DNA of 62,973 bases, the filler included, from Reclinomonas americana ATCC 50394 (lineage: Eukaryota), in NCBI GenBank assembly GCA_048213135.1. It is 3 parts of 3 records of this genome, joined end to end, with 100 filler letters (N's around TTAATTAATTAA, not from the genome) between each part and the next. Parts side by side here need not be neighbours in the genome. Positions count along the whole stretch, not along the records: positions 1 to 18,255 come from PS015468.1; positions 18,356 to 44,852 come from PS015469.1; positions 44,953 to 62,973 come from PS015470.1. One strand, 5' to 3'. The notes under the pieces are model-generated. The model did not search any database, was not told the origin of the DNA, and was given only the letters and a program-made list of their open reading frames with translations. The position numbers were made by a program, and so were the translations under genes. Shown here one piece after another: positions 37 through 62,600 of this stretch. Position 1 is the first letter of the stretch. Each line of letters begins with the position of its first letter.

Positions 37-760
37 CTCTTTTCGTATTCGTTCTCGATAAACTTGACCACGATGCGCGCATGCCTGGCCACGTCGACAT
101 TCTGCAACAGCGATGCCAGACTGGTGATAATGTGCTCCTCCATCTCGCGAATGGACTCCTTCTTGGCCTTGGCGCTCTTCATGAGGGCGGCACACAGCGT
201 GCCGAGACCCTTGATGTCGACGAATCGCGCGCAATTCTTCTCGTTGTTGAGCAGAGCGTGGTCGAGAGCCTTGAGGGCGCCTGGCCGAGTGTGCTTCTTC
301 TGAATCAGCAGCACCATGAGCTCGAGGCCTTCCACGCGTCGGAAAAAGTCCTTGTTCTCGTTCTCGACCAGTGCGTAGCACAGGCAATCAAAGAGGTTCT
401 CCATCAGTTCCTGCTCCTCCGACGTGTTGGCCGGGCGGCGCTTGAACGGCTGCATGCACACACCACTCAGCCATCACGCAGTGAGTAGCACGGCAAAGCG
501 TAGCAGCAGACGCAACTACGAGAGCTTTCAGCAGCTCCTCCACTCCATTGATCTTGCCGAGCTCCTTGCGGATGTGCGGGTCGCTCATGAGAAAGATGGA
601 GAGGATCTCGCTGGCGTACAGCTTATTGGCGTCGAACTTGCGCGTCTTGATGCGATGCACCAAGTACGGCAGGATCGGTGTCTTGCGCACCGCGTCCACG
701 GCGGTCGTCGGCACCAGCTCCGTGAGGTGCTCCAGAATGCCAAGCACATTGTGCAACGCA
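37..760 (-). CDS. CTNNBL1: Beta-catenin-like protein 1 (Prp19 complex), middle part; partial, multi-exon
   Basis: Translates to ANKLYASEILSIFL, GVEELLKAL, EEQELMENLFDCL, VEGLELMV, RFVDIKGLGTL, EMEEHIITSLASLL and KFIENEYEK, all characteristic of CTNNBL1. Intron donor at 516 is GTTGCGT. Confidence 0.9.
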
Positions 761-1000
761 NNNNNNNNNNNNNNNNNNNNNNNNNNNNNNNNNNNNNNNN
801 NNNNNNNNNNNNNNNNNNNNNNNNNNNNNNNNNNNNNNNNNNNNNNNNNNNNNNNNNNNNNNNNNNNNNNNNNNNNNNNNNNNNNNNNNNNNNNNNNNNN
901 NNNNNNNNNNNNNNNNNNNNNNNNNNNNNNNNNNNNNNNNNNNNNNNNNNNNNNNNNNNNNNNNNNNNNNNNNNNNNNNNNNNNNNNNNNNNNNNNNNNN

Positions 1001-1455
1001 GGTGGTGGTTGATCTTCTGCTGACGCAGTGGCGGCGTCCTCGGCATCCCCGTCGCCCGCAGAGTCGCCCAGATGGTCAGCGTATTCGCGCAAATTCTGCT
1101 TGATCTCGTCCACCGAGTGTCCCTGCATGCTGAGTCGTGAAAAGACGCGCTGTCGCATGGCCTGCGACGCGAGTCAATACATCGAATGCAAGAGCACATG
1201 GCGCGGCAAGATGCACACAGACACACACCTCGGCAGCCTCCGGTTGATCCCTGTACAGGTGATCGGGGGCGGCAATGGACACCACCGCCAGGATGTAGTC
1301 GATGAGCTGGAGCGTAAAGAGGCCGGCCTCGAGACGCATTGCGTACACTTCTTCGTCGTCGACCTCACCCTTCATGTCGGCCACTGTTCGCGTGGCGTGC
1401 TGAATGCCCTCCTCTGCTTGTGCCACACGCTGTGCGTACTCGCAGTGCAAGTCAC
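1001..1455 (-). CDS. CTNNBL1: Beta-catenin-like protein 1, C-terminal part (contig appears misplaced relative to 37-760)
   Basis: YAMRLEAGLFTLQLIDYIL ... IKQNLREYADHLGD matches the conserved C-terminus of CTNNBL1. Confidence 0.85.
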
Positions 1456-1529
1456 ACAGGCGGTCACTGTGTGTACAGAGCGAGAAAGATGGTCAGGAAA
1501 AAAAGGGGGNNNNNNNNNNNNNNNNNNNN

Positions 1530-58579: not shown

Positions 58580-58684
58580 CTGGTTCAATGTATCCAGAGG
58601 TGAAGAACACCGCGAGAGGGGGAGCAACTAAGAGGACAGAAGTATTCGCACTGCACGAAGCAGCAGCAGCTGTAGAAACAGCGT

Positions 58685-59465
58685 CTACGATCGTCGTCGT
58701 CGCTTGCGTGGAGGTGATTCGGAACCAGATGAAGACGACGATGATGACGATCCCGACGACGACGACGACGATCGTGACCGGGAGGAGGACGACGACGATG
58801 ATGATGAGTAGCCGCTCTCCGAATCACTCGCCGAACCACTGCTGCTGCTGCTGCTACCGCTGCCACTCGATGAGGACGAGTCATCCGAGTCCGATCCACT
58901 GCCACCCGCGAGTCAGCACGCCAACAACACACGCACATGTGGACAGCGCAACCAACGCAACGATGATGATGATGACGACGACGACGAGCCTCGACGACTG
59001 CGCTTCTTGTCCTTGCTCTTCTTGCTCTTCACGCCCAGATCCTTGCGCACCTTCGCTCGCATCTCCTCCTGCTCACTGCGCATGCTCGGTCGAGTCAGTC
59101 ACGACTCCCCATCGCCACTGAGCACACACGAGGCGAGCGCTCCACACGCAACAGCTTGGCCAGATCCTTTGGATCGGGTGGTGGCGGCTCGGCCAGCCGA
59201 CCACGCGCGCCACGCAGTTGCGGATTGTTGAACGCGCGCGAGGCCGAGGGTCGACTCGTGTACACCCGCGGGTTCTTGCATTCGTACGACCAGTGGCCCA
59301 GCTCCAAGCACTTTTGACACTGTTGCGTACCCGGTTCACTGCAGCAGCAGCAAGGACGTCAGAGAGAGAGAGAGAGGCCAGTCACGATGGGATGCATCCA
59401 CAGGTACGTAACTTGCGACTGCGGCGGACCACTGTCGAGCCCTTCTCTGTGCTCTGCAGGTACAT
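58685..59465 (-). CDS. Zinc-knuckle (CCHC) protein, ZCCHC10-like, with Ser-rich tail
   Basis: [26 protein letters not shown], then Lys-rich and poly-Ser exons. Two introns use GTTGCGT donors. Confidence 0.82.
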
Positions 59466-59698
59466 TTGCCGCTTCAACTCGCGTCGCGCTGCCCATCGAC
59501 TGATGCCCTCTCCATCTTGACCACCAGCACCGCCACTGGCTGCTTGCACTGTGAAGAGTAAGAGTCAGAGACAGACATGTCCACGCGCACGCACACAGGC
59601 GCGCGCTCGTGCACGCTCTCTGTCTACACATACACACACACTCGCGTGCGCTGAGCAGGGCGCGTACCTGGCACACTCATTCGCGCGTTGATTGATTG

Positions 59699-62600
59699 AT
59701 GGACAGAATGCAATCGCGAGCGCTCCGTCACCCCACTGCCGTGTGTGTGTTTGTGTGAAGAGACGCTCTCAGTGATCAATGAGCGCACGAGGGCCAGCAG
59801 CAGCGACAGGTCAACAACCAACCAATGGTGAATGAGACGCGCGCCTCTGTGTGTCTCAATGCGCGTGCTCACGCACTCTCTCCCTTGCTTCTTCAGTATC
59901 ACACCGACGTGGTGTGGCGCGTCACTTGACTCCACTCGACACTGGCAGCACAGACGCCGGCAGCGCAGTATCACCTCCAGGTGGTGCAGGAGTTGTGCTT
60001 GGCAGTGGAGGAGGTGGTCGGGTGCGCAATACGGCCGCCACCGCCACCTCAACGACTTCCTCGTCATCCGCAGCCACAGCAGCGGCAACAGGAGGAGCAG
60101 CAGCAGTGAGTGACAAGCACACACACACACTCACTCACTCTCTCTCTCTCTCTCTCTCTCATTGTCATCATCATCTCCCTATTCAACACACAGCGACCGG
60201 ATCCGTTCCGATTGGCGTGCGCCGCACTGGCAGAGGCGTACCTGACGCTGGTGCGCTTCCGTGTACACTTTCGGCTCATTCCACGTGTGGAGCGAGTGTT
60301 GGAGATGGCCGATTGGGTGCTGCCGAAACGTTGCGTCGGTTCAGCTCACAGCGTCTTTCGCAACAGAGTGCTCATTCCCCCTGCGCGACAGCCATTCACC
60401 CTTCGCGATTGAAGGACGTCACTGATCGCTTGCAGGAAGCCGTGGTGTATCTGGGCTTCTTCGTGGCCAACCCAGTCGATGAGCCGCATGATTGCTCACT
60501 GCTCAACACGCTCACGCACGGTTTGTCGGACACGGAGTCCAAGTGTGCGCGCCTGTTGGCTGCTGCCGAGGAGAGCTTGCGGCGACTCCTGGTACTCGCC
60601 AAGGATCGTCGCATTCTCAGCACTCTCCCGCTGTCTGCTGCCGATCGCTCGCGAACATTTGGTCTCGAGGAAGAGTTGGCGGCGGTGGTCGCCAAGGCGC
60701 AATCGTTGAGTGTCGCGCGTGAGTGTTGTTTCATCGTGTGTGTGTCCTCACACGGTTGGGCAGGCTGGAGGCACCTGGAGTGCTTCTGTTCTGTGTCACC
60801 GGCCGCCCTGGTGCCGGCAAGTCACGCATGGCACACATGGCGTGCTCCGAGGTTGCTCAGTTGTGGACCCGCGAGACTCAACCAACTGCTGACGAGGGCA
60901 CTGCACCGCCTCCGTGTCGCACCGCGTGGCTCAGTGCTGGCGCCTTCAAAGGCCGACCACACACGGTGAGGGGTGTCTGCGCGGCAAGGCACATCGCCGG
61001 CGTATGCTGAACGCCATTTTTTCACCACCCAGGTGGAGAAGTGCATGATGTCGGTGCTGCAGCAGTTCAGCTCGCAGGGTGCACCCGTGGATCTGCAAGC
61101 GCTCTCCATGGTCAGCCACGAATCGTTGATGGACATTCACCGCGCGTACCAGCAAGTGCTGCTCTCCTCCGACACCATTATCCTGGTGGACGACGTGGAG
61201 GAGATGCGACGCAATGTGTGGAAGCTGTTGCCGCCGGTGGAGCGCATGACGACGAGGCTACGGTGTCTCATTGTGGTGCGTGTGTGTGTGTGTACGTTAC
61301 GTACCTTGTCTTTCGTCGCTCACCTCGCGCGCACAGCTGGTGTGGCAAATCGGCGATGGCGTGTCCGGCGATCCACTGCACTTGCCACAAGCCTACTTGC
61401 CCGACGGCGTTCCTCTGCGATCACCATCCATGGCAGCACTCAGTGCGGCCACTGCAGGCGCGTCGTCTTCGGGTGAGGGCGTGCTGGCGTCCACCTGGAA
61501 GGCCACGCGCATCACGCACAGTTTGGATGGGCTGGATGTGGCGGTCGTAAGCAGTCGACGTCAAGCTCCCGTTGGTGGTGGTGGTGGTGGTGGCGGCGGT
61601 GGCAGTGGCGGTGGTGTTGGCGTTGTGGGCAGCAGTGGTACTGTGGGTGGCGTCGGTAGTGGTATGCCGCCATTATCACCGTCTGCTGGTTCGCGTCGTG
61701 GAGAAGCCAGCTTTTTGTTGTCACCACGAGGTGCGTCGTCCGCGCAGTTGGGCGGTGGCGTGGGTGCCATAGTCCACCGTCTGCACGTGCACTTGTGTGG
61801 CTTGTCACGCGATTCCGTGGGTCGGTTGGTGGACTTTGCGACCATAAGTCGGAGACCACGAGTGGATTTGTCGTTGGTGGCAGCGGTGCGTGTCTTACAC
61901 GAACTCGTCGTCTGTGATTTCCGTGTGTTACTTCCAACTCAAGACATACTGTGTCAACATTAACAGTCGTGTGCCTCGTCACCGACGCTGAATCGAATGC
62001 GCGAGCGCAGTAATACGCGCTTGTCAGAGCCGTCGCGGAGAGCGGTGATCTCGGCGTTGACAATGCCGCTGAGTGTGAGACTGGTGGCCAGATGTCGGAG
62101 TGCTGATCTTATCATGGAGGTATTGTGCCGCCCGTTCTGCTTCCGCCAGCAGTGTGTGGCGCTCACTCGCGCCTCTCGTGTAGGAACTTCGTGTCCACGA
62201 GAGTACTGCCGATGGCGATGGTCCGCTGGCCCAGGACACAGAGTCGTTTGTGGTCGACGAGTGTTTGAAGCTGTTGGACTCAGACGTGCTGCAAGTGCTT
62301 CTGCTGGCCACTGTGTTTGTGCCCACGGGCGCCACGTTTACTGTGGAGCAGCTGTCCAGCATAATCGACGTCCCACGACATCTGTGCCGGTCGGTTACCC
62401 TCCCTCCCTCCCTCCCGCACTGTCTGTTTTTGCTTGTGTTTCACCTTGCCTTCTCACGCTATTCCCGCACAGTGTGATTATTGCGGAACTTGTATTCCGG
62501 TGTTTTGTGGACTTTCTGCCGACATGCGATGCGCTGGTGATCCCGCCAACTGTGGCGAGAGCCATTGTTGGCTTCCGTAGCGGGCGTGTCGTGCGCAATC

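Follow-up and report, generated by a model that had tools for sequence, protein, structure and literature searches.

In a stretch of the genome of the protist Reclinomonas americana ATCC 50394 (assembly GCA_048213135.1; 62,973 bases, the whole of the DNA analysed here and referred to as the window), introns open with either of two 5' splice-site classes, which occur side by side in the same intron-rich genes: a conventional donor, G|GTG(A/C)GT, and a stricter and longer one, N|GTTGCGT, with T at the third intronic position (+3). The T class makes up roughly one third of the predicted introns and about 57-59% of those placed by homology, and GTTGCGT is very probably a real donor class. To our knowledge, U2-type introns carry a purine at +3 almost everywhere. 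The organism probably reads its GTTGCGT introns with altered splicing machinery; we see about an even chance that this is an altered U1 small nuclear RNA (snRNA) whose 5' end would be unlike the canonical ACUUAC.

Two donor classes in the same genes

Counted on both strands, GTTGCGT occurs 42 times, against 14.2 copies expected from dinucleotide shuffles (standard deviation 3.67, largest value 23, none of 100 reaching 42) and 13.2 from an order-3 Markov model (z = 7.9), and it is the 7-mer with the top z once simple repeats and the scaffold separator are set aside; the hexamer GTTGCG has 84 copies against 61.4 expected. Relative to gene strands that were predicted without any knowledge of the donor motif, the 42 copies fall 34 sense, 5 antisense and 3 intergenic (p = 2e-6). 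At least two copies (30195 and 32045, + strand) are non-donors inside predicted coding exons of duplicated genes, and seven more have no predicted donor role (9113, 19072, 28395, 32524, 48830, 55556 and 59322).

Junctions were placed by homology, reading frame and prediction. For the homology part we used our own protein-to-genome spliced aligner, which accepts GT or GC donors and AG acceptors, with 24 full-length TOP3B and 20 kynureninase homologues, each homologue that chose a site counting as one vote. GTTGCGT lies exactly at exon ends in four conserved genes, namely TOP3B, mitochondrial aspartate aminotransferase, kynureninase and CTNNBL1, and T-class donors at nine sites of TOP3B and kynureninase gathered 20-24 votes. 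Among 29 homology-placed introns, the +3 base is T in 17, G in 5, A in 4 and C in 3, and T is likewise found in 13 of the 23 introns with at least 80% of the votes or direct checks. TOP3B has 19 introns, 11 with T at +3, a count already made in an earlier, sequence-only reading of the window and one that stands if the first donor (GTTCTTG, 40675), read by eye and followed by an intron that spans a gap, is included. Furthermore, donors with C at +3 also received 20-24 votes (42668, GTCTTTC; 44147, GTCGGTC; 3250, GTCAGTT), so this position is unusually permissive in the organism overall, beyond T.

TOP3B with 17 introns removed (all but 41627-41696) has no stop in frame, against 15 and 13 in the other frames, and the aminotransferase, four introns of which were placed by eye and whose last exon ends before GTTAGTA, has none against 3 and 7. 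Mapped onto a PDB chain of mitochondrial aspartate aminotransferase, three of its exons span residues 83-146, 154-198 and 201-257; the exons that flank the EDIR|NAPE junction map up to residue 198 and from residue 201, leaving no gap. This junction and HGIG|TDAS of TOP3B, chosen by all 24 homologues, are two of the several that the sequence-only reading had taken as exactly fixed, and both hold.

As a second route, we ran a Viterbi gene finder that combines a 3-periodic Markov model of coding sequence with an acceptor matrix and a model of intron length, and that was retrained on its own predictions. When it knew only GT, or GC with a penalty, at the donor (the donor-blind run), it called 194 introns and, over its iterations, found 18-20 of the 22 gold introns. 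The heptamer seen most often at donors was GTTGCGT, opening 23 of 184 GT-donor introns where 1.54 were expected from 34 copies among 4055 sense-strand GT sites in predicted genes (p = 6e-24); other counts were 28 for GTTGCG, 15 for GTGCGT and 8 for GTGAGT. A rerun with a class-conditional donor model (the donor-informed run) gave 195 introns, with GTTGCGT at 31 of 186 GT donors. Between them the runs put T at +3 in 30-34% of predicted introns (26-34% under every confidence filter tried) and G in 43-59% (all filters). The description of GTTGCGT as dominant is right for the single heptamer; T at +3 reaches a majority among the homology-placed introns and about a third of the predicted ones. By gene, the predicted T share is 8/13 in a CD36-family gene, 9/17 in TOP3B and 3/5 in the aminotransferase, and it is lower in low-complexity predicted genes; since it is higher in well-conserved genes, false GTG calls may depress it. 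Predicted introns number about 5 per kb of coding sequence, with a median length of 69 nucleotides (nt), and the class occurs in all three scaffolds of the window and in 21 of 27 predicted intron-bearing genes, in agreement with the wide distribution that had been reported.

All 28 donor positions first listed by eye carry GTTGCG, 26 as GTTGCGT and two (44295 and 38339) as GTTGCGC. The donor-blind run recovered 23 of them, the donor-informed run 26, and homology or open reading frame (ORF) and PDB checks 9; 27 were found by at least one of these sets, the sole donor outside all of them being 57889, next to an N gap. Prediction added seven GTTGCGT donors to that list. The sibling motifs fared unequally: GTTTCGT at 44050 and 44581 obtained 23 and 24 of 24 votes and GTTACGC at 41627 obtained 12, while GTTGAGT at 24661 and two GTTGTGT donors in a BART-domain gene were recovered by prediction only. 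Ordinary donors occur in the very same genes, as had been stated; in TOP3B, GTGAGT at 42856 and GTGCGC at 43475 were each chosen by all 24 homologues.

Logos of predicted plus homology-placed introns (T class, n = 61-62; G class, n = 90-91) separate the classes further and, together with their distribution over genes, bear out the proposal of two parallel donor classes. The T class reads N|GTTGCGT (+4 G 80%, +5 C 75%, +6 G 82%, +7 T 74%), and 44 of 62 donors lie within one mismatch of the heptamer; the G class reads G|GTG(A/C)GT (+4 C 40%, A 34%, T 21%; +5 G 81%; +6 T 62%). At -1 the T class is nearly even (A 36%, C 23%, G 21%, T 20%), whereas G takes 73% in the G class; G at -1 is found in 14/62 T-class introns against 97/128 of all other classes (p = 3e-12), and in 7/17 against 11/12 among the homology-placed introns alone (p = 0.008). 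Before the conserved G, C outnumbers A by 46:2 in the T class (+5) as compared with 36:31 in the G class (+4; p = 2e-7). Intronic information over +4 to +8 amounts to 3.69 bits versus 1.90 bits, and exonic information over -3 to -1 to 0.31 versus 0.76 bits. The idea of a usual consensus shifted by one inserted T is thus half right: +4 to +7 mirror GTGCGT, but with the -1 G lost, the A-containing counterpart GTGAGT nearly absent and the intronic information doubled, the T class is more than GTGCGT plus an inserted T.

These same differences bear on whether the class could be an artefact, either of junctions misplaced by one base or more or of assembly and base calling that turned GTGCGT into GTTGCGT. 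The draft assembly is gappy, the window containing 22 N runs, and homology alone lets each junction slide by a few bases, yet an overcalled GTGCGT would have kept both its -1 G and its A/C mix, neither of which is seen, and 97 plain GTGCGT copies coexist in the window. Moreover, every homology-placed intron offers a GT-AG register of the right length, at a cost of 41-72 of about 1650-1910 score units (2-4%, four homologues) relative to unconstrained ends, whereas the equally strict rules TG-GA, GG-CA and TT-AG cost about 180-430 units (10-25%, same number of homologues). With the end dinucleotides left free, eight homologues gave equally long introns lying a few bases or less from the GT-AG solution, the commonest placement being 0-5 bases off for most introns and 9-11 off for three. 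Sliding the 43790 intron by +1 would turn a GTD tripeptide into GAD. We consider an artefact very improbable.

Downstream of the donor the two classes are alike in intron length, acceptor and branch-like motif. At the 3' splice site both show GCAG|, C occupying -3 in 82-87% and G occupying -4 in 52-62%, and there is little polypyrimidine tract; CTSAY falls in the final 40 nt of 43/65 introns of the T class and 51/94 of the G class, at a median of 20 and 19 nt from the 3' end. T-class introns have GT-AG ends, restore the frame on removal and carry ordinary branch and acceptor signals, as U2-type introns do, and from the common 3' end and the CTSAY motif some 20 nt upstream we conclude that both classes are U2-type and served by one spliceosome. 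U12-type introns have an RTATCCTT-like 5' site and a TCCTTAAC-like branch site near the 3' end; we rejected this identity on the GTTGCGT donor and on branch and acceptor signals as in the ordinary class. The opening of 31 introns of similar length (42-92 nt) by one exact heptamer could also suggest that the motif is one end of an introner-like mobile element whose recent spread gave rise to many introns. Such elements would leave related intron bodies, but 8-, 9- and 10-mers are shared no more often among T-class than among G-class bodies (8-mers: 247/1891 T-class pairs, 508/4095 G-class pairs, 50/465 pairs of GTTGCGT introns) and no common 3' part was seen, so this origin was rejected and appears the least credible of all those considered.

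Recognition of the GTTGCGT donor

Donor contexts (-4 to +10) were folded against U1 5' ends of 11-12 nt, with random GT sites as background and the canonical end taken as printed in Tan et al. 2016 (PMC4856993). In any register, canonical U1 pairs the T class at a median of -2.1 kcal/mol, against -2.6 for random GT sites (area under the curve, AUC, 0.45), the G class at -6.8 (AUC 0.85) and the class with A or C at +3 (A/C class) at -5.2 (AUC 0.74). An ACGUAC-type end gives -5.5 (AUC 0.63) for the T class in a shifted register and -7.7 (AUC 0.83) for the G class, and a full-complement ACGCAAC-type end -10.1 (AUC 0.87) and -7.5 (AUC 0.76), respectively.

The main rival to an altered U1 retains canonical U1 only. 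GTTGCGT would be bound in a register shifted by one base (G+1 opposite C9, U+3 opposite A7) or with the U at +2/+3 bulged out, helped by U1C, Luc7, TIA1-like or SR-like proteins, after which U6 would fix the cleavage site. Two features fit a one-base slide: T-class positions +4 to +7 mirror +3 to +6 of GTGCGT, and the -1 composition of the T class resembles that at -2 in the G class (A 33%, C 23%, G 22%, T 22%), as such a slide predicts. Shifted and bulged registers between 5' splice sites and U1 were reportedly described in human by Roca and Krainer in 2009 and by Roca in 2012. Tan et al. present them as proven in human cells, where non-canonical registers account for 1.5% (validated) to 5.1% (predicted) of 201,541 sites (PMC4856993), a minority mode in contrast to the third or more of introns here. 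Those human sites resemble the T class in that the intronic consensus is displaced by one base while cleavage stays at GU; unlike them, the T class gains no modelled stability over background from an alternative register. Furthermore, GTTGAGT would pair canonical U1 in the shifted register far better than GTTGCGT does (-5.2 against -2.0), yet only 2 GTTGAGT donors occur beside 31 of GTTGCGT. Routine use of a bulged or shifted register, which the sequence-only reading had offered as one option, is accordingly disfavoured by the modelling, and we regard canonical U1 with protein help as rather unlikely.

Because T-class pairing to canonical U1 is at background level and the better-pairing GTTGAGT is rare, we favour an altered or additional U1. 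The sequence-only reading had named variant U1/U6 snRNAs or altered U1 proteins as its other option, and the favoured explanation is of this kind. A U1 with a non-canonical 5' end would recognise GTTGCGT, either as a second variant beside canonical U1 or as a single altered species. An ACGCAAC-type end would pair all seven donor bases, while a single-base, ACGUAC-type change would pair with the donor after a one-base slide of the register. At later steps, an additional nucleotide separating +2 from the G-U normally found at +5/+6 would have to be tolerated by U6 and the catalytic core.

Several points weigh against an altered U1. It is here a prediction rather than an observation: an Rfam search of the window, at the gathering score and at E up to 1, found no snRNA gene (U1, U6 or other), the only matches at E up to 1 being microRNA-like and driven by microsatellites. 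Neither pseudouridines nor U1C, Luc7 and other proteins enter the energy model. Since the conventional class pairs canonical U1 well, the idea calls for two U1 species, or else for a single one able to read both classes, and the ACGCAAC model, acceptable for the G class, is weak for the A/C class (AUC 0.55). A preprint by Roy and Bowser (bioRxiv 10.1101/2022.06.08.495308) describes lineages that keep a standard U1 despite atypical donors, namely Saccharomycotina, Giardia, Trichomonas, Thecamonas and Mamiellales, which speaks for the shifted register as well. Finally, every junction was placed from DNA-based homology, frame and prediction rather than from RNA, and of the roughly 200 introns that underlie the class logos, about 170 were called by our own gene finder, which missed 4 of the 22 gold introns.

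Tentatively, one may go a step further and picture a major spliceosome that runs two 5' splice-site codes in parallel, each read by a U1 of its own, an ACUUAC-type for G|GTRNGT and a lengthened ACGCAAC-type for N|GTTGCGT; this is a possibility rather than an expectation. If it were true, a donor motif strict over seven bases would have arisen with no preceding loss of introns.

GTTGCGT might instead be recognised without U1 pairing, by a sequence-specific protein, by U6 or U5 directly, or by an undescribed extra small nuclear ribonucleoprotein. A long, information-rich intronic motif with no exonic signal follows the logic of a U12-type 5' site, and the modelled lack of complementarity to canonical U1 points the same way. 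However, the motif is unlike the U12-type 5' site, it matches the U6 ACAGA box at two of five positions in a hand alignment, and the CTSAY and acceptor signals match those of the conventional class. We therefore find U1-free recognition improbable, though less so than an artefact.

Comparison with other atypical donors

Neither the DNA nor the RNA spelling of GTTGCGT was matched as a splice donor in open-access full text, where only primers and unrelated text came up; broader full-text searches on atypical donors and U1 returned Entamoeba and diplonemid papers, none with GTTGCGT. The following comparisons refer to the Roy and Bowser preprint and, for the diplonemid, to Thakur et al. (PMC12621601). 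The closest parallel is Entamoeba, the single well-described exception to a purine at +3 in the literature consulted, in which GUUUGU(U) opens 88-90% of its few introns and the U1 5' end has co-evolved to ACAAAC (5'-AACAAAC-3'); the motif, two sites off GUAAGU, is there termed unprecedented. Entamoeba shares with the present case U at +3 in an extended consensus, as in our T-class logo, a preferred U at +7, a seven-base donor and the lack of standard pairing to canonical U1. It differs in being intron-poor and using almost one motif only, whereas here the motif stands beside a conventional class in intron-rich genes, at 30-34% of predicted and 17/29 of homology-placed introns. The donor here is also GC-rich, GUUGCGU as opposed to GUUUGU.

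In Mastigamoeba balamuthi, GUGCGC donors go with a U1 end ACGUAC, and C is preferred next to the conserved G, as in our T class; a U1 of that style would explain the T class only in part (AUC 0.63). Physarum is said in the preprint to carry both a standard and a modified U1, and the two U1 genes of one diplonemid differ at the 5' end (PMC12621601), so there is precedent for more than one U1 5' end in a genome. None of the three has T at +3 or a motif of seven bases. The GUAUGU donors of Saccharomycotina, Giardia and Trichomonas are similarly strict and incompletely complementary to U1, but they lie one position off GUAAGU and form the sole class of intron-poor lineages, in contrast to a strict motif beside a loose one.

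GTTGCGT may already have been described in the genome paper of the organism. What it adds is a strict seven-base donor with U at +3 that, in an intron-rich genome, opens at least a third of the introns while ordinary donors occur in the same genes. It bears on two questions raised in the preprint (bioRxiv 10.1101/2022.06.08.495308), whether strict splice signals arise only after intron loss and whether snRNAs co-evolve with splice sites. On the practical side, standard gene predictors, which have learned GTRAGT, will get a large share of this lineage's exons wrong. Such mis-calls may explain why no near-identical protein is found among the 120 best TOP3B matches listed, the best exon identity being 72%. 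A quick tree places the TOP3B protein of the window alone on a long branch (length 0.64; best identity 59%), apart from the green plants, animals, mucoromycete fungi and one dinoflagellate that were sampled.

Positions of the introns and the genes around them

The donors and introns are collected in Table 1.

Table 1. Introns and donors in the window. Fractions are homologues choosing the site; blind and informed denote the donor-blind and donor-informed predictions.
Feature	Gene	Position	Strand	Evidence
GTTGCGT intron	CTNNBL1	450..516	-	Pfam CTNNBL profile abuts at 236 across donor; informed
GTTTGTG intron, uncertain	kynureninase	1942..2003	-	3/20; 15/20 for GC alternative; gene finder chose GTTTGTG
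GTATGTG donor	kynureninase	2188	-	16/20
GTTGCGT intron	kynureninase	2625..2716	-	20/20
GTATCAC donor	kynureninase	3101	-	19/20
GTCAGTT donor	kynureninase	3250	-	20/20
GTTGGTC intron	kynureninase	3351..3417	-	13/20
GTTGCGT intron		5746..5814	-	blind and informed
GTTGCGT intron		6004..6081	-	blind and informed
GTTGCGT intron	RasGAP-domain gene	8706..8770	-	informed only
GTTGCGT donor, 3' end not fixed		12721..12727	+	blind only
GTTGCGT intron	AAA_16-domain gene	20376..20444	-	blind and informed
GTTGCGT intron	AAA_16-domain gene	20612..20666	-	blind and informed
GTTGCGT intron		24441..24525	+	blind and informed
GTTGCGT intron, 42 nt, less sure		25069..25110	+	blind and informed; outside first list
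GTTGCGT intron	BART-domain gene	27054..27133	-	informed only
GTTGCGT intron	BART-domain gene	28300..28368	-	informed only
GTTGCGT intron		29324..29392	+	informed only
GTTGCGT intron		34948..35038	+	informed only
GTTGCGT intron	CD36-family gene	37250..37306	-	blind and informed; flanking exons match Pfam CD36 339-378 and 383-439
GTTGCGT intron	CD36-family gene	37439..37520	-	blind and informed
GTTGCGC intron	CD36-family gene	38280..38339	-	blind and informed
GTTGCGT intron	CD36-family gene	38486..38558	-	blind and informed
GTTGCGT intron	CD36-family gene	39078..39136	-	blind and informed
GTTGCGT intron	CD36-family gene	39345..39414	-	blind and informed
GTTGCGT intron	CD36-family gene	39546..39613	-	blind and informed; upstream 28-residue exon matches Pfam CD36 55-82 end to end
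GTTGCGT intron	CD36-family gene	39702..39765	-	blind and informed; downstream exon matches Pfam CD36 55-82 from first residue
GTTCTTG donor after exon 1, intron spans N gap	TOP3B	40675..40681	+	read by eye after ATG exon
GTTACGC intron, weaker	TOP3B	41627..41696	+	12/24
GTTGCAG intron	TOP3B	41835..41908	+	24/24
GTGAGC donor	TOP3B	42294	+	24/24
GTTGCGT intron	TOP3B	42468..42530	+	24/24; frame kept
GTCTTTC donor	TOP3B	42668	+	24/24
Ordinary GTGAGT intron (contrast)	TOP3B	42856..42926	+	24/24
GTGCGT donor	TOP3B	43074	+	16/24
GTGAGG donor	TOP3B	43221	+	4/24; 17 chose GC alternative
GTTGCGT intron	TOP3B	43341..43416	+	22/24
Ordinary GTGCGC intron (contrast)	TOP3B	43475..43532	+	24/24
GTATGG donor	TOP3B	43663	+	24/24
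GTTGCGT intron (HGIG/TDAS)	TOP3B	43790..43862	+	24/24
GTTGCGT intron	TOP3B	43896..43956	+	24/24
GTTTCGT intron	TOP3B	44050..44119	+	23/24
GTCGGTC donor	TOP3B	44147	+	23/24
GTTGCGC intron	TOP3B	44295..44364	+	24/24
GTTTCGT intron	TOP3B	44581..44645	+	24/24
GTTTGTT intron, weaker	TOP3B	44773..44828	+	6/24; gene finder agrees
GTTGCGT intron (EDIR/NAPE)	mitochondrial-type aspartate aminotransferase	45216..45285	-	clean ORF; PDB residues abut without gap
GTTGCGT intron	aspartate aminotransferase	45438..45502	-	placed by eye; clean ORF; PDB mapping
GTACGC donor	aspartate aminotransferase	45772	-	placed by eye
GTTGCGT intron	aspartate aminotransferase	45871..45944	-	placed by eye; clean ORF
GTTGCGT intron		52526..52591	-	blind and informed; outside first list
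GTTGCGT intron		58899..58961	-	informed only
GTTGCGT intron		59076..59152	-	informed only
GTTGCGT intron		60330..60391	+	blind and informed

Two separators (18256-18355 and 44853-44952), each of 44 N, TTAATTAATTAA and 44 N, mark the window as three draft scaffolds artificially joined (1-18255, 18356-44852 and 44953-62973); G+C ranges over about 0.40-0.61 in 3-kb bins. The second joint cuts both TOP3B (+ strand, 40.6-44.85 kb) and the aminotransferase gene (- strand, 45.0-46.0 kb). Besides the aminotransferase, Pfam scans of stop-free ORFs yielded CTNNBL1 (- strand, 1-1500), a weak kynureninase C-terminal match, RasGAP, a lipoyl/E3-binding acyltransferase, a RING finger, an AAA_16 ATPase, a BART domain, GCN5L1, leucine-rich repeats and the CD36-family gene (- strand, 37.3-39.9 kb).

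The pieces of CTNNBL1 (- strand, 1-1509) are out of order, contig 1001-1509 matching profile positions 382-446 and contig 1-760 positions 156-381; since the later part of the protein is expected at lower coordinates on the - strand, this is likely a contig-order error in the scaffold. The kynureninase gene (1530-4419, - strand), with mostly bacterial and fungal matches, has an apparent long N-terminal extension with hydrophobic stretches, aligned by only a few long homologues (577-652 residues), a jakobid protein among them. In the CD36-family gene (36763-40440, - strand), 8 of 13 predicted donors are T class, the densest cluster in the window, and hydrophobic segments are predicted at both ends. 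Its family match is weak (E 1e-6 to 1e-8 per exon), with four predicted exons colinear with Pfam profile positions 55-82, 264-303, 339-378 and 383-439; a search with a CD36 exon returned no homologues, a weak test in which the query ORF ran through two predicted introns.

Many predicted proteins have long G, S, Q, P or H runs, and some low-complexity predicted genes, together with their GTG-type introns, may be false. CT, GT and GA repeats are the most over-represented 7-mers of the window, and a microsatellite block at 41342-41570, made up of (ACGT)n, (CGT)n and (CT)n, gave spurious microRNA-family matches below the gathering score. Two tandem duplicate genes of no known family (+ strand, 29272-31506 and 31589-33867) are 91-95% identical in exons, introns and donors alike and are therefore silent on constraint on the motif; in one intron common to both, the donor is GTTTTGC in one copy and GTCTTTT in the other.

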